Assembly (NCBI GenBank): GCA_029932675.1
Contig: JAOZPP010000004.1
Span: 12,157 to 76,156 of the forward strand
Length of the DNA stretch: 64,000 nt
DNA from: a bacterium
GTDB taxonomy: Bacteria; SM23-81; DAOVCL01
Direction: 5' to 3'
Shown piece by piece: positions 34,962-49,791 of this stretch (position 1 is its first letter; every line of letters begins with the position of its first letter). A model generated the notes under the pieces. The model was not told the DNA's origin, made no database searches, and was given only the letters and a program-made list of their open reading frames with translations. The position numbers were made by a program, and so were the translations under genes.

Positions 34962-36359
34962 TTGAAATTGCCGCAATTCAACAAGATAACAGATGAGGTT
35001 TTGAGGGAGATCTCGGATATATGTGAGGTGACCACAGATACTGGGGTGACGGAAGCCTATGGGCGGGATGAGACATCTGACCTCTTCTCCCTCCCCGAGG
35101 CTGTGGTCAGGCCGACAAAGGCCGAACAGATCTCCCAACTCCTGAAGCTTGCCTCGCAGAGGCTCTTTCCAGTAACCCCTCGAGGATTGGGGACAGGCGT
35201 CTCCGGAGGGGCTATTCCGGTGGAAGGTGGACTGGTCATCTCCTTAGAGAAGATGAATCGGTTAAAGGATATCGACAAAGAGAATATGATGGCTGTGGTC
35301 GAACCAGGGTTGATCACTGGAGAGCTCCAAGGCAAGGTGGAGGAGTTGGGGCTCTTCTATCCCCCTGATCCGGCAAGCTTGGATTCCTGCAGCTTAGGGG
35401 GTAATGTGGCCGAGGGAGCAGGAGGCCCCCGCGCCTTTAAGTATGGCACCACCAAGGATTATGTCACTGGCCTGGAGTTGGCCTTAGCCTCTGGGGAACT
35501 AATTAGCTTAGGGGGAAAGATCATCAAGGATGTCTCCGGCTATAATCTCATTGGCACAATAATTGGCTCCGAGGGAACCTTAGGAATAATTACTTCTATC
35601 ACCCTAAGGCTCATCCCCCTCCCCCCCCACAAGGTTGACCTCCTTGTCCCCTTCCCTTCCCTGGAAAAGGCAGGGGAGACCGTCTCCCTCTTAGTGGAGA
35701 AGGGGATCGTCCCGGCCACCATCGAGTTTATGGAAAGGGAAGCCCTCTTAGCCTCAGAGCAGAAGATCAAGAGGGAGGTCCCCTTCAGGGAGAAAGCGGC
35801 CCAACTGCTCATTGAGATAGACGGATATAAAAAGGAGGAGCTGGAGGGGCTCTATGAAACTGTGGGAGAGATATGCCTGGACCAGGGGGCAGAGGATGTC
35901 TTAGTGGCCGACAACCGGCCAGACCAGGAGAGGATGTGGGAGGCCCGCCGGGAGATCCCCGAGGGCTTAGCCCTCCTCAGTCCGGTGATTGACAAGGAGG
36001 ATGTGGTCGTCCCCCGCAACCAGATAGCCACCTTCCTCAGGGCAAAAGGGGAGATAGCCAAAAAGTATGGGGTAAAGATCGTCTGCTTTGGCCATGCCGG
36101 TGATGGCAACATTCACACCAATGTCCTCAAAGAGGAGATGGCTGATGAGCAGTGGAAAAAGGTAAGAAAGGAGATAGACTATGAGCTTATCCGCACCGTC
36201 CTCTCCTTGGGAGGAACAATCACCGGGGAACATGGGATAGGGGTAGTGAAGAGGGAATATCTGAAGAAGTTCACCAATCCCACCACCCTCTCCCTGATGC
36301 GGGGGATAAAACAGGCCTTCGACCCCCAAGGCATAATGAACCCCGGGAAGGTCTTGTGA
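34962..36359 (+). CDS. FAD-binding oxidase, GlcD / D-lactate dehydrogenase-like
   Basis: 465 aa with an FAD_binding_4-type N-terminus (..VTPRGLGTGVSGGAIP..) and the C-terminal motif GTITGEHGIGVVKR. Confidence 0.85.
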   Translation: MKLPQFNKITDEVLREISDICEVTTDTGVTEAYGRDETSDLFSLPEAVVRPTKAEQISQLLKLASQRLFPVTPRGLGTGVSGGAIPVEGGLVISLEKMNRLKDIDKENMMAVVEPGLITGELQGKVEELGLFYPPDPASLDSCSLGGNVAEGAGGPRAFKYGTTKDYVTGLELALASGELISLGGKIIKDVSGYNLIGTIIGSEGTLGIITSITLRLIPLPPHKVDLLVPFPSLEKAGETVSLLVEKGIVPATIEFMEREALLASEQKIKREVPFREKAAQLLIEIDGYKKEELEGLYETVGEICLDQGAEDVLVADNRPDQERMWEARREIPEGLALLSPVIDKEDVVVPRNQIATFLRAKGEIAKKYGVKIVCFGHAGDGNIHTNVLKEEMADEQWKKVRKEIDYELIRTVLSLGGTITGEHGIGVVKREYLKKFTNPTTLSLMRGIKQAFDPQGIMNPGKVL

Positions 36360-36745
36360 TGGGGAAGAAAGAGGTTAAAAGTGCCTTTACTGAAGAAGGA
36401 AGGCAAGTTGAGTGGCGCCACCCCGGGGGTAAATTACGGGATTGGGGCCCCAAGTCATTAACAAATCAGGAACTTCTAGCGATCCTTATTTCTACAGGAA
36501 TACCAGGTAAAACTGCGGAAGATATTGCTAAGGAAATACTAGATAAATTTGGCTCCTTTAAAGGAATGGCAAACCAGCCGCTAGAAAAATTTCTCCAATT
36601 TAAAGGAATGGGAGACGTTAAAATTATTCGCATTGCAGCGGCTTTTGAGATAGCAAGAAGAATAACAGGGGAGGTTTTAGAAAAATATGAAGAGCAAAAA
36701 ACCCAAAATTCCGGGAAAAGCCACACGAATATCAAACCCCTTTGA
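36356..36745 (+). pseudogene. radC: RadC-family N-terminal helix-hairpin-helix fragment; the JAB/MPN domain is missing
   Basis: LTNQELLAILISTGIPGKTAEDIAKEILDKFGSFKGMANQPLEKFLQFKGMGDVKIIRIAAAFEIARRI matches the RadC N-domain. The ORF then runs into unrelated sequence and stops at 36745. No HNHPSG-type JAB motif occurs anywhere downstream. Confidence 0.5.
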
Positions 36746-39700
36746 CATCACTACTCATAGAACGGAGTGGACTTGTGCTGCCAAGCTTGCTGAGTGGATG
36801 AACTCCTACATTAAGGACAAGAATTTACCTTTGGGCACTGCAGAGGTAGAAACCATCCAGGAAGGTGACCGAAAACGAGTCGATATTATTCTATTTGATA
36901 GTCCAGCAAATCAAAAAGTGCTCTGCGTCATTGAAACCAAACAACCTTATTTTGATGTCTTTAATGAGAGCGAGCTCAAAGAACCTGCACGTAAAAAAGC
37001 CGTTAAGAGAAAAGCTCCGTACTTTGCTACCTGTAATTTCCAGTGGTTCATTTGGTTCAATACGGAGAGAGTGAACAAGATGGATCCAGAGGAAAGACAA
37101 ATTCTCGAAAAATATCACCTCTCGGAAATTGAGGATTTAGACTACATAGAGGAACCAAGGTTCAAGAATCCCATCATAACTGGGCTCAGTAAGTTCTTAC
37201 AGGAGCTAGTTGAGGTATCCAAGGGCAAAAAGCCTGAGCCATTACTTCCGATTGATGAGTTTCTGATATTTCGTCTCCATGAGAAAGTCAACAGACTTGC
37301 TCGCTATTACAGAGTCATAATAAGAGATGCTACTCATAAAGACACGAAGTTTCAAAGTAAACTCCAGAAATGGTTTATAGATCAACAATGGCAGTTTACC
37401 TGGAAAGATTCTGATTACGATAAGGTGGCGAGACAGACTGCTTACCTTCTAATCAACAAAATCCTCTTCTATTACCTACTTAAAGCAAAAAAGACTTACC
37501 TTGCTTCTCTAGAGATTCCTGAAGACTTGACAAAAGGTGGGCAACTTCAGGCACAATTGCAAGCTTATTTTAGCTATGTTTTGAAAAAGATCGACTATGA
37601 GACTATCTACAGCACCGATTTTATTGACCAGACGGCCTTCCCTGACAACAAAGAGGTTGTCTGTGAAATCAAAGACCTTGTTAATATCTTAAAAAGATAT
37701 GACTTTTCTGAAATAGGGTATGAAATCATAGGAAATATCTTCCAACGTCTCATCCCTCAGAAAGAACAGCACAAGTTAGGTCAATACTTCACAAATCCTG
37801 ACATCGTGGATCTCATTTTAAGATTTTGTTTGAAACATGAGAAGGATAAAATATTGGACCCGTCCTGTGGTGCCGGAACTTTCCTTATGAGGGCATATAA
37901 ACACAAAAAGATAATGAATAATAGACTCTCGCATAGGGATATTCTTGAAACTCTTTGGGGAGTAGATATTGCAAAGTTTCCATCTCACCTTGCTACAATA
38001 AATCTCGCACTACAAGATTTAGGAGAAGATAAGAATTACCCAAATATAGCTCAGGAAGACTTTTTTAATCTGCTTACTAGTCCTGAAGGATTAGAACTCC
38101 CTGAAAAATGGAGAAAAATTAGAGCAAAAACCCTCGGGGTGAAGGAAAGAGAGATCACTTATCCCAGATGGTTTGACTGTATTGTGGGGAACCCCCCATA
38201 CACAAGACAAGAAGAGATTCCAGATATTACAGGTAAGTTAAGTTATAAAAAGAAATTGATTAAAAGTGCTCTTTACAATGTAAATCACAAAAAGATTGCC
38301 ACTATTTCCAAAAGGGCGGGCATATATGTCTATTTCTTCATTCATGGAATGAAATTCTTACGGAATGGGGGAAGATTTGGTTTCATTGTTTCAAATTCTT
38401 GGCTTGATGTTGACTATGGGAGGGGACTGCAGGAATTCTTTTTGAAAAATTATAAAATCGTCGCCATCATTGAATCAAAGGTTGAACGATGGTTTGAAAC
38501 AGCGGATATAAACACTTGTATAGTAATACTTGAAAAATGTAAAGATACAAAACAACGGAATGAGAATTTCGTGAAGTTTGTTTACTTATTCAAACCGCTC
38601 CGTCATTTTGTCCCTCCGGCACAAAAGAGATGGGAAGAACAAATTAAACGAGTTGATACTATTGATAGTTTAATCAAAACAATCCTTGCCCATAAAGAGT
38701 TCTACCAAAATGAAGAAATAAGAATCTATCCTAAATTACAAAAAGAACTCTGGATGGAGGGCTATGATAAAAGGAATAAAAAATATGCTGGTTCAAAATG
38801 GGGTAAATATATTAGAGCACCAGAACCAATTATAAAAAAGATCTTGATGAATAGAAGATTATCTCTCCTGGGTTCTTTCGTCAAGGCTATTATGGAAGGC
38901 GAACCCACAGGTGCAAATGAATTCTTTTTTGTCACAAGAGAAATCATAAAGAAATTCAAAATAGAAAATACTTATTTGCATCCTGCGTTTAATAGTCCAA
39001 AGGATTCTAAATCAATACTTATTACACAAACAAACAGCTATAGTTGGAAACTTCTTACGAACGCTTCAAAAGAGGAGTTGAAGGGAACAAATATTTTGAA
39101 ATACATCAAATGGGGAGAAAGAAAAGGATTCAGGAAACACTATTTTAAGGAAGATATCTGGTATTCAAGAAGCGATAGAAAGGCAGATTTATTGATTCCG
39201 AGAGGGATATACCAGAGGTTTATTTGCTTCTACAATGTTGATGGTCTTATTGCAAGTGATAGGTTTGTTGAAATTTTCATGCGATCAAAAGAGCTGAGAG
39301 AAATTACCGGAGCTTTCCTTAACTCCACTCTGTATTTTCTTTTGCTTGAACTTTACTGTCGGACAAATTTGGGTCAAGGGGCTTTGGATATTCAACCAAC
39401 TGATATTAGAAAAATACCAATTCCAGATTTGACGGAACTTGATAAAAAGCTTGTTCAGCATATTCAAGAAGTCTTTGAGCAAGTTAGCAAAAGAGAGGTG
39501 AATGTTATATTTGAAGAACTCGGTGTCAATTCTCCAGGAGAAGTTTCCCTTGACAAGGTCAAACCTGACCGCAGGGAACTGGATAAGATCGTTATGGGGG
39601 ATATTTTAGGTTTGACGGAAGAGGAACAACTTGAAGTCTATCGTGCCGTCGTTGACCTGGTAAGTTCCCGGATTAAGAAGGCAAAGAGTGTAGAGCGGAA

Positions 39701-40169
39701 AAAGAAAATTAAGGGGGGCATAGATATTGATGCCTTTGTGAAGACAGTAATAGAGGGAATTGGAAAAAAGACTTTGGCAGAATTTTATCAAGAGAAAATA
39801 CTAACACAAAAACCACTTTACACGAAGAAACTCCCTAAACCCACGAATGAGGTGGGGTTTGAAGCGGAGTTGGGTTTGAAATTTGAGAAGGAAATCCACA
39901 AATATCGACTAAATTCAGGTAAAAAACATATTTTCTGCAAATCTGAGCCCGAAGCCCGCTATCTAAAAGTTTGGATAGAAGCGGGATTGGAAAGTGTCAA
40001 AGTTCCCAAAGATGAAGATCGTTTAGTTAAGATAGTCCCTCAATTGGAAAGATTGATGGAGAAAACCAAAAAGATAATAGAGTCCTATACTGACTCTATC
40101 CTCCAACCTAAGCTCCGCCAGAAAATCTTCCACCAAATCTGGCAGAAATTAACTGAAGGAATTGAATAA
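36687..40169 (+). CDS. Type IIG-like fused restriction endonuclease / N6-adenine DNA methyltransferase (Eco57I/MmeI-like architecture)
   Basis: 1160 aa. The N-terminal candidate PD-(D/E)xK motif is RVDIILFD..VIETKQP. MTase motif I is ILDPSCGAGTFLM and motif IV is VGNPPYTRQEE. An Eco57I-like segment (GRFGFIVSNSWLDVDYG) follows, then a long presumed TRD and about 170 extra residues after the family's usual ..KAKSV end. Confidence 0.65.
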   Translation: MKSKKPKIPGKATRISNPFDITTHRTEWTCAAKLAEWMNSYIKDKNLPLGTAEVETIQEGDRKRVDIILFDSPANQKVLCVIETKQPYFDVFNESELKEPARKKAVKRKAPYFATCNFQWFIWFNTERVNKMDPEERQILEKYHLSEIEDLDYIEEPRFKNPIITGLSKFLQELVEVSKGKKPEPLLPIDEFLIFRLHEKVNRLARYYRVIIRDATHKDTKFQSKLQKWFIDQQWQFTWKDSDYDKVARQTAYLLINKILFYYLLKAKKTYLASLEIPEDLTKGGQLQAQLQAYFSYVLKKIDYETIYSTDFIDQTAFPDNKEVVCEIKDLVNILKRYDFSEIGYEIIGNIFQRLIPQKEQHKLGQYFTNPDIVDLILRFCLKHEKDKILDPSCGAGTFLMRAYKHKKIMNNRLSHRDILETLWGVDIAKFPSHLATINLALQDLGEDKNYPNIAQEDFFNLLTSPEGLELPEKWRKIRAKTLGVKEREITYPRWFDCIVGNPPYTRQEEIPDITGKLSYKKKLIKSALYNVNHKKIATISKRAGIYVYFFIHGMKFLRNGGRFGFIVSNSWLDVDYGRGLQEFFLKNYKIVAIIESKVERWFETADINTCIVILEKCKDTKQRNENFVKFVYLFKPLRHFVPPAQKRWEEQIKRVDTIDSLIKTILAHKEFYQNEEIRIYPKLQKELWMEGYDKRNKKYAGSKWGKYIRAPEPIIKKILMNRRLSLLGSFVKAIMEGEPTGANEFFFVTREIIKKFKIENTYLHPAFNSPKDSKSILITQTNSYSWKLLTNASKEELKGTNILKYIKWGERKGFRKHYFKEDIWYSRSDRKADLLIPRGIYQRFICFYNVDGLIASDRFVEIFMRSKELREITGAFLNSTLYFLLLELYCRTNLGQGALDIQPTDIRKIPIPDLTELDKKLVQHIQEVFEQVSKREVNVIFEELGVNSPGEVSLDKVKPDRRELDKIVMGDILGLTEEEQLEVYRAVVDLVSSRIKKAKSVERKKKIKGGIDIDAFVKTVIEGIGKKTLAEFYQEKILTQKPLYTKKLPKPTNEVGFEAELGLKFEKEIHKYRLNSGKKHIFCKSEPEARYLKVWIEAGLESVKVPKDEDRLVKIVPQLERLMEKTKKIIESYTDSILQPKLRQKIFHQIWQKLTEGIE

Positions 40170-40355
40170 GGTGTAAAAGCAGTGGTAAAATTGAAGAAAT
40201 GGCGGGTTGAATGAAAGCGCTTGACCTACTTACGATGGGGGGTGGGAGGCTGATCCAAGATCCAGGTATGGGGCTGGGAAAGTCTGGGACGGAGGGTAGA
40301 GGACATCAAATCGAGAATAGTAGAGGGCTGAAAAATAGGCTAGTGAAAGCGAGAA

Positions 40356-40877
40356 GTGTGTGAGATGAAAGTAACCGCAGACGCATCTATTCTAATCCAC
40401 CTTGCAGCCATTGGAAGATTTTATCTATTGGAGGAGTTATTCGGTGAGGTAATGATCCCAGAAAGTGTCTATAAGGAGGTAGTTGTAGAAGGCTGGGGGC
40501 TTTCCGGTTCTTTAGAAACGGCGGAAGCCCTAAGAACGGGCCTTATAAAAGTAGGTGAAGTAATAGACAAGGAGAAAGTCAGAGAGTTCTCACAAAGATA
40601 TAGAGTCAGCGCAACCAATGCCGAGGTCATTCAATTATCAAAAGAGTTGAACTCTAAAATTGTTTTGGCCGATGAGGAAGAAGTTAGAGATGCTGCACAG
40701 GAAGCTGGCCTTCAAGTGAAAGGTTGTTTGGGCATACTTGTAGATTCAGTGAAAAATAAGATCATCTCTTCTCGACAGGCTGTCCAAGATATCGACAATT
40801 TAGTTGCATCAGGTTATCGCATTAGCAATGATATAATTGATGGATTGAAAAACACTTTAAGGAGATGGGACAGATGA
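40356..40877 (+). CDS. DUF3368-type PIN-like nuclease (toxin), copy 1
   Basis: DASILIHLAAIGRFYLLEELFGEVMIPESVYKEV.. and ..GCLGILVDSVKNKII match the DUF3368/COG2405 pattern. The likely start is ATG 40365. Confidence 0.75.
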   Translation: MCEMKVTADASILIHLAAIGRFYLLEELFGEVMIPESVYKEVVVEGWGLSGSLETAEALRTGLIKVGEVIDKEKVREFSQRYRVSATNAEVIQLSKELNSKIVLADEEEVRDAAQEAGLQVKGCLGILVDSVKNKIISSRQAVQDIDNLVASGYRISNDIIDGLKNTLRRWDR

Positions 40878-41092
40878 AAGCCTCCTTGATGATACCAGAA
40901 AGGATAAGGGAAAAGTTCCTGGGGGAGATACTGGATATGTATGCGCAAGGTGAGTTGGCTGCCAGCAAAGCTGCTCAGATGCTTGGCATACCGAGGGCTA
41001 CTTTCTATAGCCTATTGGCTGAAACAAACACCCCTCTCCCCAAAAAGCTTAATGATAGCATCAGAAAAGAGTTGGAAGAATTATTAAAGTGA
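40865..41092 (+). CDS. UPF0175-family antitoxin-like protein, copy 1
   Basis: 75 aa. ..ILDMYAQGELAASKAAQMLGIPRATFYSLLAE.. matches the UPF0175/COG2886 pattern. It overlaps the PIN ORF by 13 nt. Confidence 0.65.
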   Translation: MGQMKASLMIPERIREKFLGEILDMYAQGELAASKAAQMLGIPRATFYSLLAETNTPLPKKLNDSIRKELEELLK

Positions 41093-41223
41093 CACCTGAC
41101 CGCCGGGAAGTGGATAGAATCGTCTTTGAAGCCCTGAAATTAACTGAAAAGGAACAACTTGAAGTTCACCGGGCAGTGGGGGAGTTGGTGAAGAACAGGC
41201 TCGTTAAGGCAAGGAGTGTGTAG
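41089..41223 (+). pseudogene. orphan 3' tail of an Eco57I-family methyltransferase gene (relic 1)
   Basis: VTPDRREVDRIVFEALKLTEKEQLEVHRAVGELVKNRLVKARSV* parallels KPDRRELDKIVMGDILGLTEEEQLEVYRAVVDLVSSRIKKAKSV in the 1160-aa protein. It starts at a GTGA overlap with the antitoxin stop. Confidence 0.7.
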
Positions 41224-41241
41224 TACGGATACAGTGGATGG

Positions 41242-42363
41242 TTGCAGATGAGCGAATTGATGAAGGCAGATTATAAAGAACTTCTTGCAAAGGTTTCGGG
41301 TCTGCTTGAGCGGGCAAGACACGAAGCTGTAAGAAGGATTAATACGGTTATCGTAGAAACCTATTGGGAAATTGGAAGATTGATTGTAGAAGAGGAACAG
41401 AAGGGCAAAAAACGGGCCGAGTATGGTAAAAGGTTGTTACAGAAATTATCAATTGATTTGACAAAAAGATATGGACGGGGATTCTCAACCGACAATTTAG
41501 AGGCTATGAGAAAGTTTTACTTGATTTATCCTAGTTTTGGCAGGAAGATTTCCGAGACAATGTCTCGGAAATTAGGAAAGACTCAAGCTGATATCCCAGA
41601 GATTGAATTTCTGAAGAATCTTTCATGGTCTCACATTCGTGAAATTATAACACTTGAGGAACCTCTTGCAAGGTCTTTTTATGTGATAGAGACAATTAAA
41701 AATAACTGGTCAGTGAGGGAATTGAAGAGACAAAAAGGCTCCCTACTCTTTGAGAGACTTGCCCTGAGCAAAGAGAAAAAGAAGGTAATGGAGCTGGCAA
41801 AGAGAGGGCAGATTATTGAGAAGCCCGAGGATATAGTCAAAGACCCCTATGTATTGGAGTTCCTGGGTATCCCTGAGAGACATCACTATACTGAATCACA
41901 GTTGGAACAGGCTCTTATTGACCATCTTCAAGAATTTCTTTTAGAACTCGGTAAAGGCTTCACTTTTGTTGCCCGACAAAAGAGGATTACTATTGACAAC
42001 GAACATTTTTACATTGACCTGGTCTTTTACAACCGCATCGTGCGGTGTTTTGTCTTGATTGACCTCAAAGTAGGCAAGTTTACTCCGGCTGATACTGGGC
42101 AAATGAATTTTTATCTCAATTACATCAAGGCCAATGAAGTGATGGAGGATGAAAACCCTCCTGTGGGCATTCTTCTCTGCACTGAGGCTGACAGAAGCAG
42201 AGTCTTTGTAGAGTATGCCCTGGGAGGATTGGATAATAAAATTTTCGTCTCCAAATACAAATTGTATCTCCCGACGAAAAGAGAACTTGAGGCAGAAATC
42301 AAGAAAGAGACGGCTCGTTTACAACTTATTTCACCCAGGGAGATGAAAAGCAGCAAAGATTAG
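41242..42363 (+). CDS. YhcG/DUF1016-family PD-(D/E)xK nuclease-fold protein
   Basis: The N-terminal region reads INTVIVETYWEIGRLIVEEEQ.G..RAEYGK.LL..LS. The C-terminal region reads VKDPYVLEFLG..E..LE.ALIDHLQEFLLELGKGFTFVARQKRI..D...FYIDLVFYNR..RCFVLIDLKVGKF. The likely start is ATG 41248. Confidence 0.85.
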   Translation: MQMSELMKADYKELLAKVSGLLERARHEAVRRINTVIVETYWEIGRLIVEEEQKGKKRAEYGKRLLQKLSIDLTKRYGRGFSTDNLEAMRKFYLIYPSFGRKISETMSRKLGKTQADIPEIEFLKNLSWSHIREIITLEEPLARSFYVIETIKNNWSVRELKRQKGSLLFERLALSKEKKKVMELAKRGQIIEKPEDIVKDPYVLEFLGIPERHHYTESQLEQALIDHLQEFLLELGKGFTFVARQKRITIDNEHFYIDLVFYNRIVRCFVLIDLKVGKFTPADTGQMNFYLNYIKANEVMEDENPPVGILLCTEADRSRVFVEYALGGLDNKIFVSKYKLYLPTKRELEAEIKKETARLQLISPREMKSSKD

Positions 42364-42431
42364 GTTTTCTTAAATATAGGAATGATTCATCTTGAAGCTG
42401 AGGCATTTCCATTTTATAAAACACCTTAGCA

Positions 42432-43292
42432 GTGGCAATTGAGAATCTACTTGATACAGACTGGCGAGAGAAATTGAAATCTCTTGGCCTTGAGGGGTTT
42501 CTTGATCTCTTGGGCACAGAAAGGCTCGCACAGAAGAAGGCCCGGATGGCAAATCTTTTAAGAATTGCCAATCCCGATGAGGCACTTTATCGGGAGATCA
42601 TGGTTGCCCTGGGCTACAAAAACAATAAGGTTCAGTTTCTGGAGCTGGCACTAATACTACCCTATTCAGAGATTCGTGCCTTAAAAGATAGTGAAAGAAT
42701 TGAGAAGGCTTTACTCTATCGGGCAGGATTTCTGCAATCGAAAGATGGGCTTCCGGAGAATTTCGATGGTTCCCTGAAGATGGATCGCTCGGTATGGCAA
42801 CTCCGGGGCACAAGACCGGCAAATTTTCCTGCTACCAGAATAAAGGGTATCGCACCACTGCTCTCTGAGTCCTGCGAAACAGGGCTGTGCAAGCTAATCG
42901 AAGCGAAGATTGCTGACAACTACCTGCCGACCACAAATAGAAGATCCGCTGGTAGCTTCTGCAAAGAGCTCACAAAAATCTTTACTACGGGCGAGAGGAA
43001 AGCAGTGGGTCAAACAAGAGCTTTGGAAATCCTCTTTAACATAATCCTGCCGTTCTTTATGACTTATTTTGAAAGGGAGGGTAAACGAAAATATGCAGAG
43101 TTCCTCCTAAGCATTTACGATCAACACCCTATTCTCTCAGAGAACTCTGTTATCAGGGCGATGAAGGCTCAACTATTCGGTGAAGATAAAAAGAAAGCCA
43201 GGCAAGTGGTCAATTCAGTGAGGCGCTATATGGGGTTAATTCACTTGCACAATGTTGTATTGAAGGGAGAAAAGCTCGATGACTATTCCTGA
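42432..43292 (+). CDS. DUF2851-like protein (C-terminal half only)
   Basis: 286 aa with a GTG start. ALLYRAGFL.. and W.LRGTRPANFPATRIKGIAPLL resemble, from memory, the RP.NFP..RI.QLA block of DUF2851. The end overlaps the next ATG by 14 nt. Confidence 0.5.
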   Translation: MAIENLLDTDWREKLKSLGLEGFLDLLGTERLAQKKARMANLLRIANPDEALYREIMVALGYKNNKVQFLELALILPYSEIRALKDSERIEKALLYRAGFLQSKDGLPENFDGSLKMDRSVWQLRGTRPANFPATRIKGIAPLLSESCETGLCKLIEAKIADNYLPTTNRRSAGSFCKELTKIFTTGERKAVGQTRALEILFNIILPFFMTYFEREGKRKYAEFLLSIYDQHPILSENSVIRAMKAQLFGEDKKKARQVVNSVRRYMGLIHLHNVVLKGEKLDDYS

Positions 43293-46200
43293 CATCATCG
43301 ATAACAGCGCCGAGGGGCGCAGATTGGCCGATGTCTTGAAGGAAATTATTGTCCCCGGCACCAAAGTGTATATCGCTTCAGGCTATTTCAACCTGGAAGG
43401 TTTCAGACTCATTAGTGAGAAATTGAAGGAGACGCAAGGAGTGCGCCTTCTTCTTGGCCGGGCTTTATCCCCCCAGGATGTGCGTTCACCAAAGTTTTTC
43501 CTTGAAGAATTAAGAGAAGAGGCAGAGGCAAAGATGGGGACCCCAGAGGCCGAAGGTCTAATCCGGGAATTCCTCCGCTGGCTTGAGAACCCTGGGGTTG
43601 GGGTGAAGATCTACAACAAGGGATTTTATCACGGAAAATTCTATATCGTTGAAGGAGTTCCGGTTTTGGGAGCAGTGGCTATCTCTGGCTCTTCGAACTT
43701 CACCCAAGCTGGCCTTACCAGAAATACCGAATTCAACACCGTCTTAAAGCAGGGGAGCGCGGTAAAAGAAACAAAGCGGGTTTTTGACCGACTATGGAAT
43801 GAGAGCGAAGACTACAAACAGGACCTGAAATCGCTTTACTCCGATTTCACCGCCGCTTACAGTCCTTATGAAATATATATCAAGGCTCTCTACGCCTATT
43901 TTAGGGATAAGTTTGCTTCGGTTTCTCCAACTGATGAGGTTCCCAGCCCTATCGTTCTCACTGATTTTCAGCGCGACGGCTATTTAGCTGCCCTCGATAC
44001 CCTTGATCGCTATAGCGGTGTTCTGCTCTCCGACTCCGTGGGGTTAGGTAAAACATATCTTGCCCTGAAGCTTCTGGATGACTTTGCCTATAGGTTGAGA
44101 GAAAAGGCTCTGGTCATCTGTCCGGCGCAACTTAAGGGGATTCTTTGGGAACCCAAACTGAGAGAAGCCGGCATCAGAGCAGATATTGTCCACAGGGAGC
44201 GGGTGAGCCGGAAGGACTTCCCAATAGAAGAGTACCAAGATCACGACCTTATCGTCGTGGACGAGTCTCACAACTTTCGCAACTCCCAGACAAACTGTTG
44301 GAAAAACCTCTCCTTATGTGTGATAAGAGGTAAACCAAAGAAAGTAATACTTATCACTGCAACTCCTGTAAATAACTCCGTTTTTGACCTTTACAACCAG
44401 ATTCGCTTGATCACCAAGGACAGGGACAGTTTCTTCGCCGCGGCTGGTATCCCAAGCCTATGGGGCTATTTTCTTAGAGCAGATAAGGAGAAAGAGACTC
44501 TATACGATCTTTTAGAGGAAATAGCTGTTAGGCGCAGCCGGCCTTTTATCAAGAGGAACTATCCGGATGTAGCAATTGATGGTGAGCCGATAAGATTTCC
44601 AGAAAGGGAGCTTCACACAACCCGATACAACCTTGAGCAGACCTATCAGGGGCTTTACAAAGAATGCTCTCAAACCATCGAAAACTTGACCCTGGCAAGC
44701 TACAACATTGAGTCGTATCGGAAGGAGATCAGACAAGAGCAGCTTGAGCTTTTCGAGCATATCAACAAGGCCTTTCTTGCCAAAGGGTGGTCTGAAAAAG
44801 AGAGCAAGGACTTCTTAATGAAATTGGGTAGGAATGAGGCGGTAATTTCGATTTTGAAGGTGCTCTTTTTAAAGCGGCTTGAATCCAGCATTGAGGCCTT
44901 TAGAATCAGCATAGAAAGATTGGTTGATTTTCAGAGGAAATTTCTTCAGGTCTTTAAGGAAGGAAGAATACTGGATAGAGACGCCTATCGCAAGTTCTTC
45001 CTTCAAAGCGGTGAGGATGAATCTACAGAGGAAGGTGAGAGCATCTCCACTGTCCTAGAGAAGTTGCCACAGATAAATTTGGAAGATTTCGATGTAGAGG
45101 CAATCAAACGCTCTGTTCAGAAGGATATCGGTGCTCTTGAGCAAATTTACAAAAAGGTCGAGAGAATAAAATCGGGGAAAGATACGAAGCTGCAGATTCT
45201 CAAAGAGAAATTAAGCGGTGAACTAAAGGGAAAGAAAGTCATCATCTTTACCTATTTTAAGGATACTGCTCGTTACCTTTATCGCTGGCTAGGCGGCAAC
45301 AGGGAGTGGCTGGAAAGTGTGGTCTCGCCTGAGGAGCGAAGGGCGGTGGAAAGTTTCTTGAGCCACGCCTCTCTTTCATCCCCGAACATCTCAATCACGG
45401 ATAGTGGGATAGACCCTGATGAGCGTAAGAACAGAATCATGCGCTTCTCCCCGATAGCCAACGGTCGCCCTGAGCTAAAAGGAACAGAAAGGGAGATTCA
45501 AATCCTCATCTCAACCGATGTCCTCTCGGAAGGCCAGAATCTGCAGGATGCTGATACGGTAATAAATTATGATCTTCCCTGGAATCCTGTTCGCCTCATT
45601 CAGCGAGTGGGAAGGATCGATCGTCTCAAGTCTCCGCACCCTCTGGTGCATCTTTACAACTTCTTCCCTGAAGACGCATTGGAATCCCTCCTAGGCATTC
45701 TGGAGAGGCTTTATCAGAAACTCGATGCCATTAATCGCAGTGTAGGCTTAGATGTAAGCACCTTAGGGGAGACGCCTACGCCGAAGGATTTTGGCTTCAT
45801 TCGTGACCTTTTTGCAGGAAAAGCCGAGGTTTTAGAGGAGTTAGAAGGGATGTCCGAACTGGCCGTCGGTGAGTTCCTTAAACAAGAACTCTTGCAGTTT
45901 TTAGAAAAGGTAGGTGAAGAGAAGATAAGGAGAATACCCAATGGTGTGGGAAGTGGTCTACACAAAGAGGGACAGCATGGACTTTTCGTGGCTTTCAAAG
46001 ACAAGGAGCGCCATTATTGGTGCTATTACGACTTCAAGACTGGTAAGGTCCTTGAGAACAAACTCCAGGTCATTCGACTTATCAGATGCGAAGAGAGTGA
46101 ACCACGGATAGAGCCGGATTTTGATGTCTATGAGGTCATTGAGAAAGCGAAGAGACATATCCTCGCCCGTTTGCGCACTTCTTCCTTAAAGCCGCCCATG

Positions 46201-46473
46201 CTTAAGGCACCTCAAAACCAAATCGTAAACTGGTTACAAGGATTAGCTTCCAAAGCAACTGATCTTCTTGAATATTTTCGCGAACCTTTGCCAGAGTTAT
46301 ATCTGCGGGAGCTTCGTTCCTTATGGATTAACAGGGCCTCATCAGAGGAGGTACTCATCCTTAAGCTAAGGGAGTTCAAAGAGTCCCATCCAATTTCACC
46401 AGCAATGGAAAGAACTCCACCGCCTGAAGAGCCCAAGGTCAAAGTTGTTTGCTATCTTGCAGTTATGAGTTAG
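43279..46473 (+). CDS. fused PLD-family (HKD) nuclease domain and SNF2-family helicase
   Basis: 1064 aa. The HKD motif is YHGKFYIVEG..GSSNFT. Helicase motifs are GLGKT (I), VVDESHNFRN (II), ITATPVNNS (III) and STDVLSEGQNLQDADTVINYDLPWNPVRLIQRVGRIDR (V/VI). Confidence 0.85.
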   Translation: MTIPDIIDNSAEGRRLADVLKEIIVPGTKVYIASGYFNLEGFRLISEKLKETQGVRLLLGRALSPQDVRSPKFFLEELREEAEAKMGTPEAEGLIREFLRWLENPGVGVKIYNKGFYHGKFYIVEGVPVLGAVAISGSSNFTQAGLTRNTEFNTVLKQGSAVKETKRVFDRLWNESEDYKQDLKSLYSDFTAAYSPYEIYIKALYAYFRDKFASVSPTDEVPSPIVLTDFQRDGYLAALDTLDRYSGVLLSDSVGLGKTYLALKLLDDFAYRLREKALVICPAQLKGILWEPKLREAGIRADIVHRERVSRKDFPIEEYQDHDLIVVDESHNFRNSQTNCWKNLSLCVIRGKPKKVILITATPVNNSVFDLYNQIRLITKDRDSFFAAAGIPSLWGYFLRADKEKETLYDLLEEIAVRRSRPFIKRNYPDVAIDGEPIRFPERELHTTRYNLEQTYQGLYKECSQTIENLTLASYNIESYRKEIRQEQLELFEHINKAFLAKGWSEKESKDFLMKLGRNEAVISILKVLFLKRLESSIEAFRISIERLVDFQRKFLQVFKEGRILDRDAYRKFFLQSGEDESTEEGESISTVLEKLPQINLEDFDVEAIKRSVQKDIGALEQIYKKVERIKSGKDTKLQILKEKLSGELKGKKVIIFTYFKDTARYLYRWLGGNREWLESVVSPEERRAVESFLSHASLSSPNISITDSGIDPDERKNRIMRFSPIANGRPELKGTEREIQILISTDVLSEGQNLQDADTVINYDLPWNPVRLIQRVGRIDRLKSPHPLVHLYNFFPEDALESLLGILERLYQKLDAINRSVGLDVSTLGETPTPKDFGFIRDLFAGKAEVLEELEGMSELAVGEFLKQELLQFLEKVGEEKIRRIPNGVGSGLHKEGQHGLFVAFKDKERHYWCYYDFKTGKVLENKLQVIRLIRCEESEPRIEPDFDVYEVIEKAKRHILARLRTSSLKPPMLKAPQNQIVNWLQGLASKATDLLEYFREPLPELYLRELRSLWINRASSEEVLILKLREFKESHPISPAMERTPPPEEPKVKVVCYLAVMS

Positions 46474-46583
46474 AAACTAAATGGGTAAACTTAGAAAGGT
46501 TATGAAAACCTGGGGATATCAGGGTAGAGGACATCAAATCGAGAATAGTAGAGGGCTGAAAAATAGGCTAGTGAAAGCGAGAA

Positions 46584-47105
46584 GTGTGTGAGATGAAAGT
46601 AACCGCAGACGCATCTATTCTAATCCACCTTGCAGCCATTGGAAGATTTTATCTATTGGAGGAGTTATTCGGTGAGGTAATGATCCCAGAAAGTGTCTAT
46701 AAGGAGGTAGTTGTAGAAGGCTGGGGGCTTTCCGGTTCTTTAGAAACGGCGGAAGCCCTAAGAACGGGCCTTATAAAAGTAGGTGAAGTAATAGACAAGG
46801 AGAAAGTCAGAGAGTTCTCACAAAGATATAGAGTCAGCGCAACCAATGCCGAGGTCATTCAATTATCAAAAGAGTTGAACTCTAAAATTGTTTTGGCCGA
46901 TGAGGAAGAAGTTAGAGATGCTGCACAGGAAGCTGGCCTTCAAGTGAAAGGTTGTTTGGGCATACTTGTAGATTCAGTGAAAAATAAGATCATCTCTTCT
47001 CGACAGGCTGTCCAAGATATCGACAATTTAGTTGCATCAGGTTATCGCATTAGCAATGATATAATTGATGGATTGAAAAACACTTTAAGGAGATGGGACA
47101 GATGA
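46584..47105 (+). CDS. DUF3368-type PIN-like nuclease (toxin), copy 2
   Basis: The protein is identical to that of 40356..40877. Confidence 0.75.
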   Translation: MCEMKVTADASILIHLAAIGRFYLLEELFGEVMIPESVYKEVVVEGWGLSGSLETAEALRTGLIKVGEVIDKEKVREFSQRYRVSATNAEVIQLSKELNSKIVLADEEEVRDAAQEAGLQVKGCLGILVDSVKNKIISSRQAVQDIDNLVASGYRISNDIIDGLKNTLRRWDR

Positions 47106-47320
47106 AAGCCTCCTTGATGATACCAGAAAGGATAAGGGAAAAGTTCCTGGGGGAGATACTGGATATGTATGCGCAAGGTGAGTTGGCTGCCAGCAAAGCT
47201 GCTCAGATGCTTGGCATACCGAGGGCTACTTTCTATAGCCTATTGGCTGAAACAAACACCCCTCTCCCCAAAAAGCTTAATGATAGCATCAGAAAAGAGT
47301 TGGAAGAATTATTAAAGTGA
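47093..47320 (+). CDS. UPF0175-family antitoxin-like protein, copy 2
   Basis: The protein is identical to that of 40865..41092. Confidence 0.65.
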   Translation: MGQMKASLMIPERIREKFLGEILDMYAQGELAASKAAQMLGIPRATFYSLLAETNTPLPKKLNDSIRKELEELLK

Positions 47321-47451
47321 CACCTGACCGCAGGGAACTGGATAGAATCATCTTCGAGGCTCTGGGCTTGACTGAGGGGAAGCAACTTGAGGTCTAGCGG
47401 GCGGTGGTGGAGTTGGTGAAGAACAGACTGGTTAAGGCAAGGAGTGTATAA
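47317..47451 (+). pseudogene. orphan methyltransferase 3' tail (relic 2) with an in-frame stop
   Basis: It reads VTPDRRELDRIIFEALGLTEGKQLEV*RAVVELVKNRLVKARSV*, with a TAG at 47395..47397. I count about 25 mismatches in about 120 nt against relic 1. Confidence 0.7.
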
Positions 47452-47469
47452 TTTCACAAAGAGCAAAAC

Positions 47470-49158
47470 ATGACGAGAAAAGAAATACAAAGGCTTATCA
47501 AGCAACCTGAAGGACAATTCTTTGAGAAGAAGAGTTGCCTCGAAAAGAAAGCGGATGGAAGAACAAGAAGCCGTAAGGCGAAAGATGTAGCTAAGGATGT
47601 GGCAGAGACTTTATCAGCTATGGCTAATGCTGATGGAGGTTCGCTAATCCTCGGTGTGGAGGATGATGACACAGTCAGCGGTGTTAACCATCCCAGCGAC
47701 CGTATCCAAGTTATTGAGAAAGCTCCTTTGAATCTTGTTAGACCACCACTGAAAACGACTGTAGCGAGAACATATATTCAAAAGCAAATGTTACTGGTAT
47801 TCAGTGTTGACTGGAGTCCAAAGGTTCACCAGCTCACCGATGGTAGATACCTGCTCAGGGTTGGTGACAGCAACATACCATTTCCTGCAAAGGATATTGA
47901 GGCCATCAAAAGGTCTAAATTACAAGCACTATGGGAAAACCAAATTGTTGAAGGAGCAACTGTTGAAGACCTCGACCATGAGCTTATGAGAGAATTAGCA
48001 AGCAAAGTTGGGATAAACGCCAACATAGAGAAATTCCTGCAACACTATAAGCTTATTGAGTATTATAACCGCACAATAAAACTAAAACGGGCTGCACTGC
48101 TTTTGTTTGGGAAAGACCCACTAAGGTGGCATCCGCGTTGTGGTATAGATTTTGTGAAGTTCGAGGGAACAGAAAGGAAGTATGGAGGGGCGCTTAATAT
48201 TGTGAAAAGAGAAAGAATCGAGACCCCACTTGTTTTACTTATCGAAGAGACCTACAAGGTAATCGCCCCTCATATCAAGGAAAGGCAGATTCTACACGAT
48301 CTATTTTTCGTGGAGCAGCTTGAGTATCCATCCTTTGCCTGGCAGGAGGCAATAGTCAATGCTGTAGCTCATCGAGATTACAGTATATTAGGTCTTTCCA
48401 TTGAAATATGGATGTTCGATGACCGGATCGAAGTGAGAAGCCCTGGGCTGCTCCCTGAGCCTGTAACTATTGAAAGACTTCTTAAAAGGGAGCGTATTCA
48501 TGCAAGCCGCAATCCACTAATTGTCAGAGTCCTGACAGATTTGGGGTATATGCGTGAGATGGGAGAAGGAATCCCAAGAATGTTTGAAGAGATGGAGAAA
48601 AACGGACTCTATTCACCAGAACTAAGGATTGAAGCCGATTCCATATTTACTGTGGTTTTGAAGAATCAACCCGTTTATACTCCGGATGATTTGCGATGGC
48701 TTGAAAGGTATTCAACTATCCCTTTGAGTTCGAATCAGAAAAGGATTTTGCTCTTTGCAAGAGTTCATGGAATGCGCTTTACGAGTCGAGATTACCAGAA
48801 GATTTGTAGTGTAGACATCTATTCAGCATCACGTGATATCAAAGATCTTATGAGAAAGGGCATAGTACGCTTACAAAAGAAGGGTGGAAGAATTTATGAG
48901 ATATTGGAAGGCAAGGAAGATGAGTTTCCTGAATTTCCCGAAGGGTACCTTGAAGTAAGAATGATTGTCGAAAGAAAGGGATATGTAAAAAACGAAGACT
49001 TGAGGGGTGTTTTGAAGCTATCAAGAGTTCAAGCCAAGTGGTTGTTCCAAAAATACTTAAATTTAGGTCTTTTGAAAATGGAGGGTCAGGGGCGGGGGGC
49101 AAGGTATGTTCCGACAGAAAAATTCTGGAAGACGAGAAATGGACAATTCAAAAAATAA
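47470..49158 (+). CDS. AlbA_2 (Schlafen-like) / HATPase_c_4 / winged-HTH protein ('RecG-like' putative regulator family)
   Basis: 562 aa with E.QFFEKKS.., AKDVAETLSAMANADGGSLILGVEDD and AWQEAIVNAVAHRDYS..IEIWMFDDRIEVRSPG, plus two C-terminal wHTH-like segments. Confidence 0.75.
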   Translation: MTRKEIQRLIKQPEGQFFEKKSCLEKKADGRTRSRKAKDVAKDVAETLSAMANADGGSLILGVEDDDTVSGVNHPSDRIQVIEKAPLNLVRPPLKTTVARTYIQKQMLLVFSVDWSPKVHQLTDGRYLLRVGDSNIPFPAKDIEAIKRSKLQALWENQIVEGATVEDLDHELMRELASKVGINANIEKFLQHYKLIEYYNRTIKLKRAALLLFGKDPLRWHPRCGIDFVKFEGTERKYGGALNIVKRERIETPLVLLIEETYKVIAPHIKERQILHDLFFVEQLEYPSFAWQEAIVNAVAHRDYSILGLSIEIWMFDDRIEVRSPGLLPEPVTIERLLKRERIHASRNPLIVRVLTDLGYMREMGEGIPRMFEEMEKNGLYSPELRIEADSIFTVVLKNQPVYTPDDLRWLERYSTIPLSSNQKRILLFARVHGMRFTSRDYQKICSVDIYSASRDIKDLMRKGIVRLQKKGGRIYEILEGKEDEFPEFPEGYLEVRMIVERKGYVKNEDLRGVLKLSRVQAKWLFQKYLNLGLLKMEGQGRGARYVPTEKFWKTRNGQFKK

Positions 49159-49215
49159 AATGGACAGCTCTGCGTTTCTTAAGATCCATTTTTTAAGATG
49201 TCCATTTTAGGCAAG

Positions 49216-49329
49216 ACACCTTAGCAGTGGCAATTGAGAATCTACTTGATACAGATTGGCGAGAGAAATTGAAATCTCTTGGCCTTGAGAGGTTTCTTGA
49301 TTTCTTGGGCACAGAAAGGTTCGCACAGA
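49216..49329 (+). pseudogene. duplicate of the 5' end of the DUF2851-like gene (fragment)
   Basis: 114 nt with 4 mismatches to 42421..42534. The frame ends shortly afterwards. Confidence 0.75.
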
Positions 49330-49330
49330 G

Positions 49331-49494
49331 GATTATCCAGACGACAAACCTCACCCAAGTGCACTCTTCTTAGGTTGGATTAAAAGCAAGCCCTTGCATG
49401 TTTTAGCTGCCTTAGATGAAACCAATGAATGGGCTTACATTATTACCGCATATGAACCAAGCCTTGAATACTTTGAGCCTGATTTGAAAACAAA
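49331..49494 (+). pseudogene. C-terminal fragment of a DUF4258-type toxin
   Basis: It reads DYPDDKPHPSALLLGWIKSKPLHVLAALDETNEWAYIITAYEPSLEYFEPDLKTK, with no start codon or N-terminal part. Confidence 0.5.
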
Positions 49495-49566
49495 GAACAA
49501 CTTGAAGTTTACCGGGCAGTGGGGGAGTTGGTAAAGAACAGGCTCGTTAAGGTGAGGAGTGTGTGA
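49495..49566 (+). pseudogene. orphan methyltransferase 3' tail (relic 3)
   Basis: It reads EQLEVYRAVGELVKNRLVKVRSV* and is near-identical at the DNA level to the end of relic 1. Confidence 0.7.
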
Positions 49567-49593
49567 TATGGATGCAGTAAAAATGATTAACCC

Positions 49594-49791
49594 TTGCTCC
49601 GAGTGATGTTATCATCCCCCAGGTACAGATCCTATGATCGAACGGGGAAGGGAAAAATAACCAGCGGCGAGATACAGAAGATGTTCGATGTTAGTAGGGA
49701 TACAGCAAACAGGTATTTGAAGAAGTTATCAAAGCTGAAGTTGATAGAAAGGCACGGAGAGGGTAGATCCACATATTACGTTCTTAGTTAA
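49594..49791 (+). pseudogene. wHTH C-terminal fragment of an AlbA_2/HATPase_c_4-family gene
   Basis: GKITSGEIQKMFDVSRDTANRYLKKLSKLKLIERHGEGRSTYYVL resembles the tail of that family. It has a TTG 'start' and no upstream domains. Confidence 0.4.

Follow-up and report, generated by a model that had tools for sequence, protein, structure and literature searches.

Introduction

Orphan arrays that arise by homology-facilitated illegitimate recombination and C-terminal displacement have already been described for type VI secretion system (T6SS), Rhs and contact-dependent inhibition (CDI) genes (PMC5361080), and the insertion of restriction-modification (RM) genes with long target duplication is known from the work of the Kobayashi laboratory (PMC2853133). 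Accessory or backup effectors, furthermore, are embedded in bacteriophage exclusion (BREX), BREX-related (BR), DISARM (defence island system associated with restriction-modification) and type I RM loci, as described in the sections of PMC12839542 that are drawn on here. In the present study, a 64,000-nt stretch of DNA ("the window"; assembly GCA_029932675.1, contig JAOZPP010000004.1, positions 12,157 to 76,156 of the forward strand) from a bacterium of the GTDB lineage Bacteria; SM23-81; DAOVCL01 was analysed, in which the last codons of a DNA methylase gene, referred to as the "tail", recur as three orphan copies next to toxin-antitoxin (TA) and nuclease genes. These tails lie in an island at 36.4-49.9 kb and are assigned to a methylase class termed type A, which is distinct from the type B methylase resident in the same island. 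Comparable tail arrays are present in other genomes, the loci of which are designated by L numbers.

The orphan toxin-immunity cassettes of Rhs and CDI systems and the orphan immunity arrays of the Vibrio cholerae T6SS (PMC5361080) resemble the tail arrays in several respects. They run in one direction behind a large conserved gene, part of which is retained in each displaced module, as is seen here in L002, L025 and the window; the cargo is of the toxin-immunity or TA-like kind; no dedicated recombinase is known; and homologous or homology-facilitated illegitimate recombination with a one-sided anchor has been proposed for their formation. In those systems, however, the anchor precedes, on the 5' side, a variable toxin tip subject to exchange, whereas here it would be the invariant extreme 3' end of a methylase gene. 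The methylase is not diversified; instead, whole accessory genes accumulate after it. The host system differs as well, being RM- or BREX-like with an Eco57I/N6_Mtase gene, and not a polymorphic toxin gene, as its main component.

Insertion with long target duplication (PMC2853133) likewise brings in defence genes without a mobility gene and leaves the insert between direct repeats that vary in length but exceed 30 bp and in some cases overlap a neighbouring gene at its 3' end. Repeats above 30 bp, together with a lack of mobility genes, were also found in L017, L025, L033 and the window. In the published cases, however, it is the RM system that is inserted, into unrelated loci, whereas here the end of an RM-like methylase gene would be the recurrent target, the inserts are accessory TA and nuclease genes, and the events stack into arrays.

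With the loci treated in the sections of PMC12839542 used here, the present ones share Schlafen-type genes (AlbA_2-HATPase-winged helix-turn-helix, wHTH), PIN and PD-(D/E)xK genes and TA-like pairs between the methylase and helicase-nuclease core genes, as well as an HKD-SNF2 protein as effector. These sections describe the embedding without a structural footprint, and the subtypes they cover differ from the type A system, which is without DUF499, DUF3780 and PglZ. The type A methylase is PglX- or type-IIG-like according to PADLOC and NCBIfam, under all curated cut-offs. Membership in the Type-2 BR group was considered and rejected: HKD-SNF2 and a PglX-like methylase are present, but no DUF499 or DUF3780 was found among the open reading frames (ORFs) of the island, and L004, L005, L013 and L023 have no room for these genes, as judged from ORF maps only. 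Class 1 DISARM was rejected as well, given that partial similarity to DrmD/DrmMI lies below curated cut-offs and a DrmA/DrmB gene is absent. The type A system falls outside the named BREX, DISARM and BR subtypes.

Integron cassette arrays with attC sites are also of one orientation, without evident promoters of their own, with a repeated separator element and with TA genes as common cargo. In contrast to these, IntI is missing here, and the repeat is a coding sequence that is conserved at the protein level only and has neither a hairpin nor fixed boundaries. A diversity-generating retroelement was rejected since no reverse transcriptase domain occurs in the island ORFs and the tail is invariant, not hypervariable (adenine specificity was viewed by eye in L017 only). 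A tail-duplication footprint at a specific methylase gene end, stacked across phyla, was not found in a limited literature search.

Orphan tails of the window and their donor family

The three orphan tails and their frame states, pointed out by an earlier first-pass annotation, are recovered by both DNA repeats and tblastn. All features of the window described here lie on the + strand. Tail 1 (41086-41223) comprises 45 codons plus stop and has an intact frame; gene callers predict it as a 44-aa protein (P0001). With its coding part (41086-41220) as tblastn query, the coding part of tail 2 (47314-47448, the whole tail extending over 47314-47451) is matched with 84% amino acid (aa) identity (E 1.5e-18), and that of tail 3 (49492-49563, whole tail 49492-49566), which consists of the last 24 codons plus stop, with 92% aa identity (E 5e-9). 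Tails 3 and 1 are also 90% identical in their DNA, the similarity running 12 nt beyond the stop. An in-frame TAG interrupts tail 2 at 47395-47397, and tails 1 and 2 start at a GTGA that overlaps the stop codon of a UPF0175 antitoxin gene, both as initially noted. A repeat finder places these sequences in two DNA repeat families, one at 39621-39707, 41149-41235, 47377-47463 and 49492-49578, the other at 39555-39592, 41086-41123 and 47314-47351. The similarity of tail 1 to the internal segment 39555-39692 of the resident enzyme stands up to alignment statistics (63% aa identity, E 2e-12); the resident gene does run on beyond this segment, for 158 codons after ..KAKSV and not for the roughly 170 first given.

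Two more remnants of the tail end (33 nt each, encoding ..KNRLVKARSV and the stop) were found immediately 5' of the two PIN toxin genes, at 40331-40363 and 46559-46591. Each TA cassette of the window therefore has tail sequence on both flanks (33 nt upstream, 138 nt downstream). Besides the tails, no piece of a type A methylase body was found in the window. The orphan tails of the window are non-functional pseudogene scars.

A scan with the tail alignment, covering one genome per species (GTDB), yielded 80 loci from many bacterial and archaeal phyla, and upon extension of the reading frames around every tail match two enzyme classes, type A and type B, became apparent. The twelve full-length type A enzymes (987-1377 aa; L002, L004, L007, L009, L010, L011, L014, L021, L023, L028, L030, L072) end 0-8 codons from the tail match ..FEALGLTEEEQLEVYRAVVELVKNRLVKARSV (0-5 codons in 11 of the 12, and exactly at the last aligned residue in 8), and type A tails are 61-91% identical to the window relics, the tail of the L002 methylase reaching 91% aa identity with tail 2. 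In type B enzymes, the resident one included, ..IMGEILGLTDEEQLEVYRAVVDLVKSRIEKAKSV is internal, with 26-29 or 141-159 residues beyond it; the last 45 residues of type A enzymes (e.g., L002 8007-8141) thus correspond to a motif that is common to type B but internal there. Only the terminal segment of type A genes ever occurs in downstream orphans. The tails derive from the type A family and not from the resident type B enzyme. That the relics come from other alleles had been suggested early on, and the search with the tail as query has now returned intact, full-length type A genes as candidate donors.

Searched with phmmer against 1.84 billion representative proteins, the 45-residue tail gave 325 matches at E <= 1e-3, nearly always at the extreme C-terminus; among them are full-length proteins (1100-1320 aa) as well as several ORFs only 42-62 aa long, which without their context cannot be distinguished from genes truncated at contig edges. 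Querying a protein word index with the 44-aa tail, an approach too insensitive for donors, returned only the window ORF and P0002 (L001). Among solved structures, a sequence search gave methyltransferase-domain matches only and none over the tail.

The usual order of the type A system is a methylase of ~990-1380 aa ending in ..EEQLEVYRAVVELVKNRLVKARSV before the stop, an optional cargo slot, a DUF2851-like gene and an HKD-SNF2 helicase-nuclease gene. The HKD(PLD)-SNF2 protein is the type A partner, with the DUF2851-like gene often in between. In L004, L005 and L013, the DUF2851 and HKD-SNF2 partners are 68-73% identical to those of the window, and the HKD-SNF2 partner (28-50% identity) is also found in L023, L030, L031, L011, L019 and archaeal loci. 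Some type A genes are broken. In L006 (4295-10138), an AlbA_2/HATPase_c_4 gene is located inside the methylase, which is split into ORFs of 980 aa and 366 aa, and in L016 and L024 the open frame ahead of the tail is limited to ~325-370 codons. These breaks hint at a second recombination boundary or a domain boundary ~330-370 residues from the end.

Tail arrays in other genomes

Multi-tail arrays with differing cargo, always in one orientation, are present in at least nine other species-level genomes, and of the ~30 type A loci whose downstream sequence could be used, about 8 contain at least two tails, the array loci being counted in a sample that was selected for the best tail matches. This recurrence bears out the first-pass view of the gene end as a hotspot of recombination or insertion. 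Of the matches to the tail-end pattern, 98 are on the strand of the methylase and a single one is on the other; the additional tail copies are therefore direct repeats.

The most extended array, in L002, comprises a full type A gene and four further tails (five in total), between which lie a DUF3800 gene, an ImmA/IrrE plus DUF4411 pair, a YhcG fragment with UPF0175, and the start of an AlbA_2 gene. In L017, the methylase tail is followed by ImmA plus DUF4411 and a second tail; the direct repeat of ~175 nt (~96% identity) extends from 18 codons upstream of the 45-residue segment to ~12 nt beyond the stop. Three tails surround an AlbA_2 gene and a 225-aa gene in L025 (repeat of 87 nt), and tails bracket a PIN gene in L033 (repeat of ~60 nt), a DUF4058 gene in L072, and a 172-aa ORF in L008, where HicA follows the second tail. 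DUF6883/DUF4926 genes are the cargo in L032, and two tails lie just 41 nt apart in L022. L050 and L058 have a left flank like that of the window (FAD oxidase, RadC-N, type B methylase), and in both the type B gene is directly followed by a decayed type A tail. Varied cargo of the same orientation (DUF4258/DUF2283, HicAB, DUF3800, Y1_Tnp) is also found behind the type A stop codon where the tail is not duplicated, while in L023 the slot is empty. Often the start codon of a cargo gene is directly adjacent to the stop codon of the tail or overlaps it. In L017, L025 and L072, the orphans match the resident tail of the same genome in GC content and in residues specific to the lineage, a likeness that points to local duplication or to exchange among close relatives.

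Several further observations concern individual orphan tails. Those of L002 (10899-10960; metagenome-assembled genome, MAG, of Desulfobacterales) and L058 (10955-11016; Zixibacteria MAG) contain the same derived insertion ..ARPVKLCL; therefore, either an already decayed orphan was transferred together with its flank from one lineage to a distant one, or one of the contigs is mis-binned. On the independent metagenome contig L001 (374-824), the orphan tail P0002 (48 aa) overlaps the stop codon of an unrelated gene and has a DUF3800 fragment next to it. A Y1_Tnp ORF (Pfam; IS200-like Y1 transposase) immediately follows the type A tail in L022 (2219-2773), as does a Y1-transposase-like ORF with an N-terminus that is near-identical by eye in L030 (10374-10943); the ORFs after the orphan tails of L050 (10828-11235) and L058 (11017-11343) are Y1-like by eye, with no Pfam match.

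The exact repeat and the toxin-antitoxin junctions

The segments 40293-41103 and 46521-47331 of the window are 100% identical over 811 bp, after which identity is ~80% through the remaining tail. Copy 1 is composed of the tail-end remnant, the gene for a PIN/DUF3368 toxin (40362-40877; Pfam, and PDC-S70 in PADLOC), the UPF0175 antitoxin gene (40865-41092; Pfam) and the first 18 nt of tail homology (41086-41103); in copy 2, PIN and UPF0175 are located at 46590-47105 and 47093-47320. The exact repeat implies that TA-tail junctions 1 and 2 are one junction present twice and not independent events. In L050, the segment 11399-11473 is homologous to window positions 40238-40312, which span the left edge of copy 1 at 40293; thus, copy 1 has kept its original context, and copy 2 is derived or converted.

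A metagenome scan with the PIN protein as query gave three loci only (L082, L083, L084), and an exact look-up of the UPF0175 protein matched no record. In L084, a longer tail (23-26 codons) is followed by PIN and then UPF0175, the junction from the tail stop to ATGAAAGTAA being that of the window. In L082, UPF0175 precedes the first ~45 nt of the tail, again with the identical junction, and L083 contains a partial PIN gene, UPF0175, DUF2851 and HKD-SNF2 without a tail. The UPF0175-to-tail junction of L002 equals that of the window, with an internal deletion in the tail. Junctions of the window thus recur in L082, L084 and L002, and this sharing indicates that the TA junction was inherited and that one ancestral tail-TA-tail unit has spread.

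These findings speak against the initial interpretation that TA cassettes have repeatedly overwritten methylase gene bodies. Both TA-tail junctions of the window are one junction copied at 100% identity. The tail remnant 5' of each TA cassette places the cassette inside a tail duplication downstream of the methylase, not in place of the gene body. Finally, the cargo is of the kind that ordinarily occupies the slot between a type A methylase gene and the HKD-SNF2 gene.

Proposed mechanism and history

The island has a GC content of 35-47%, compared with ~49-59% in the flanking housekeeping genes. As one joint explanation, which we hold with moderate confidence, the region at 36.4-49.9 kb would be a low-GC defence island acquired horizontally, and its orphan tails would be the scars of recombination anchored in the methylase 3' end as cargo enters behind the methylase. 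Small cargo modules, from a repertoire of PIN/UPF0175, DUF4258/DUF2283, HicAB, ImmA/DUF4411, DUF3800, YhcG and AlbA_2 genes, would enter the slot just behind the methylase stop codon, with the 3'-terminal coding segment serving as homology for entry and the other end being non-homologous. Three forms of this process may be envisaged: (i) a single crossover by a circular intermediate of cargo plus tail, (ii) homology-facilitated illegitimate recombination by which the previous gene end is pushed downstream, a process put forward for the orphan arrays of T6SS, Rhs and CDI systems (PMC5361080), and (iii) insertion with long target duplication as described for RM genes (PMC2853133). Each event would leave a partial tail copy of the same orientation between successive cargo modules. 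The observed repeats share one orientation and differ in length, and their right edge is constant and coincides with the gene end, as is predicted by all three forms. The earlier idea of overwriting from the 5' side overlaps with the displacement form; the overwriting agent, however, would be an incoming segment of methylase plus cargo and not a TA cassette.

For the window itself, we infer the following order of events. A tail, PIN-UPF0175, tail unit would have been inherited, and the body of the type A methylase would have been deleted later in a separate step. The TA unit may then have been copied or homogenised, giving the exact 811-bp repeat, and the start of a DUF2851 gene, a piece of DUF4258, tail 3 and a wHTH piece would have been gathered at the distal end.

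Several points weigh against recombination behind the methylase as the origin of the tails. No isogenic pair of empty and filled sites was found among the nearest relatives, where only the tail and the gene body align; single-tail type A loci exist (e.g., L023, L004), none of them near-isogenic to a filled locus. Therefore, target duplication, Campbell-type insertion and displacement are not separable. Tails of different phyla are identical in ~70-80% of their DNA, too little for distant lineages to recombine by ordinary homologous recombination, so the events would have to take place among close relatives. About 22 of the 30 type A loci with enough downstream sequence have cargo or nothing and no second tail, hence duplication is not obligatory. 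In addition, an exact 811-bp repeat in a metagenomic contig could be partly an assembly effect, and all comparison loci are MAG contigs, with mis-binning and chimeras possible.

A wider reading, which is tentative and rather doubtful, is that the 3' end of type A genes in bacteria and archaea acts as a recombinase-independent platform for cassette capture. Circular or linear DNA with a tail copy of ~60-175 nt would integrate behind the methylase and be excised via recombination between tails.

Alternative explanations

According to the first-pass model, each orphan tail is the rest of a separate, complete type A gene that was deleted or overwritten from its 5' side. This would accommodate the variable left ends of the orphans, which range from 33 nt to more than 350 nt (65-120 codons are kept in L072 and L050), the truncated or split type A genes of L006, L016, L019 and L024, and the mere ~80% identity of tails 1 and 2 past the exact repeat, which suggests a differing age or origin. 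However, L002 would need up to five genes of 3.7 kb, each cut to its last 12-37 codons, with no other body fragment left behind. The ~96% identical repeat of L017 abuts the stop codon of a single two-gene cassette, the orphans carry lineage-specific features of the resident tail, and the TA cassette of the window has a tail remnant on its 5' side as well. On balance, a stack of eroded complete genes appears unlikely.

Alternatively, the second TA copy and the part downstream of it may be a metagenome assembly artefact in which strain variants were joined via a shared repeat. An exact repeat of 811 bp in one contig, with divergent sequence on both sides, fits such an artefact. Yet, the same succession is seen in the independent assembly of L002, from a partial YhcG gene through the 3' end of PIN, UPF0175 and a tail to AlbA_2. 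The contig, moreover, could only have been built if reads connect the helicase end with TA copy 2, and multi-tail arrays occur in many independent assemblies. We regard this explanation as improbable.

A further alternative is that the tail is a dedicated attC- or dif-like site and the arrays are an integron-like platform served by a recombinase encoded elsewhere. Ordered arrays of one orientation, tightly packed cassettes without evident promoters of their own, cargo starts that abut or overlap the tail stop, TA and defence genes as typical cargo, and Y1_Tnp-like ORFs adjoining tails in L022 and L030 (similar by eye, but with no Pfam match, in L050 and L058) are in agreement with this idea. 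Among type A enzymes, the tail is the most strongly conserved block, with a mean pairwise identity of 0.84 compared with 0.39 for the whole protein and 0.68 for the NPPY catalytic block. At positions with the same amino acid, however, the codon is identical in 0.40 of cases in the tail versus 0.37 elsewhere; there is no excess of synonymous identity, and the constraint on the tail is therefore one on the protein and not on the DNA, so that DNA-level constraint is ruled out. An attC-like hairpin is ruled out as well, single-strand folding of both strands being no better than that of shuffled sequences (z-scores of -0.2 to +2.0). The orphans have neither a common left boundary nor a common core, and no Rfam match or tRNA was found that would indicate a structured RNA or a tRNA integration target. 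Integrase or recombinase genes were not detected by Pfam in the island ORFs or the ten flanking ORFs (~7 kb on either side), nor was a recombinase seen in most array loci, and the viral contigs scanned for the tail contained no relatives. A dedicated recombination site is thus very improbable.

That the orphan tails are functional short ORFs, i.e., translational-coupling leaders or mimics of the methylase C-terminal helix, is scarcely credible: despite the intact frame of tail 1 with its GTG start overlapping the UPF0175 stop, its prediction by gene callers as a 44-aa protein, and cargo starts 0-37 nt past the tail stops in several loci, the left ends vary, many orphans are cut at arbitrary points without a start codon, and the frame is broken in tail 2 (TAG), in the L050 orphan (stop and frameshift) and in the L022 orphan (stop).

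Layout of the island

The island contains an intact RadC-N plus type B, type-IIG-like methylase module and the wreck of a second, type A system. Its first half consists of the type B methylase, the first tail-end remnant with PIN-UPF0175 and tail 1, YhcG, DUF2851 and HKD-SNF2; its second half, of the second remnant with PIN-UPF0175 and tail 2, AlbA_2, a DUF2851 fragment, a possible DUF4258 fragment, tail 3 and a wHTH fragment. A scan for promoters and terminators gave counts near shuffle expectation.

The left part starts with a small gene encoding the RadC N-terminus alone (UPF0758_N in Pfam; 36356-36745), followed by the gene for the resident Eco57I/N6_Mtase enzyme of 1160 aa (Pfam; 36687-40169). 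A 129-aa protein of this kind, with UPF0758_N and without the JAB domain, is encoded directly 5' of type B methylases in ~35 species-level genomes of many phyla, and nearly all type B genes have it in front of them; the RadC-N gene is therefore a conserved partner of type B methylases, and a radC gene broken by the island was ruled out. RadC-N plus type B methylase (window 36356-40169; L035-L081) looks like a new conserved two-gene module.

Behind tail 1 lies a gene for a YhcG/DUF1016 nuclease of the PD-(D/E)xK type (41242-42363; Pfam, PDC-S02 in PADLOC), and behind tail 2 an AlbA_2 (Schlafen-like)/HATPase_c_4 gene (47470-49158; Pfam). The adjacency of tail and YhcG recurs in L002 and that of tail and AlbA_2 in L002 and L025. 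While these two downstream partners had been named correctly, the third, at 49594-49791, is not a fragment of the AlbA_2 family of the window as assumed; it has no detectable similarity to it (E = 17) and is a generic winged-HTH gene fragment at the end of the low-GC island.

The core partners of the type A system are the DUF2851-like gene (42432-43292) and the HKD(PLD)-SNF2 helicase-nuclease gene (43279-46473), both assigned by Pfam and synteny. They are intact (42432-46473) though their cognate type A methylase is gone and the neighbouring methylase is of type B; judged from the gene content, the HKD-SNF2 module of the window is an orphan restriction-like effector that has lost its methylase. 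Truncation of DUF2851 by cargo was considered and ruled out, the short form being native in L004, L005, L013 and L083. Between the AlbA_2 gene and tail 3, a spacer and the 5' start of the DUF2851-like gene are duplicated (49198-49351; 90-93% identity to 42405-42556), followed by a possible C-terminal fragment of a DUF4258 toxin (49379-49480). The latter, reported before as being fused to tail 3, is weakly supported (E 3e-4), with no Pfam match.

Implications

For the annotation of the window, the outcome is that the orphan tails are to be regarded as pseudogene scars and the HKD-SNF2 module as an orphan without methylase. Beyond this locus, the analysis defines an uncharacterised two- or three-gene RM-like system, composed of the type A methylase, a DUF2851-like protein and HKD-SNF2, and a C-terminal motif of 45 residues whose conservation is far above that of the catalytic site. 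Accessory toxins and nucleases sit inside RM, BREX and related operons, and the tail footprint offers a concrete and testable route for their entry. This footprint consists of direct partial copies of the last 10-60 codons of the methylase gene between successive cargo genes, is found across phyla, and may serve as a marker for ordering acquisitions. If the type A gene end were indeed a platform for cassette capture, tail-tagged cassettes would carry TA and accessory defence genes from one RM-like locus to another, following an integron-like logic on the basis of host homologous recombination, and this could explain the accessory effectors embedded in BREX- and RM-type operons.

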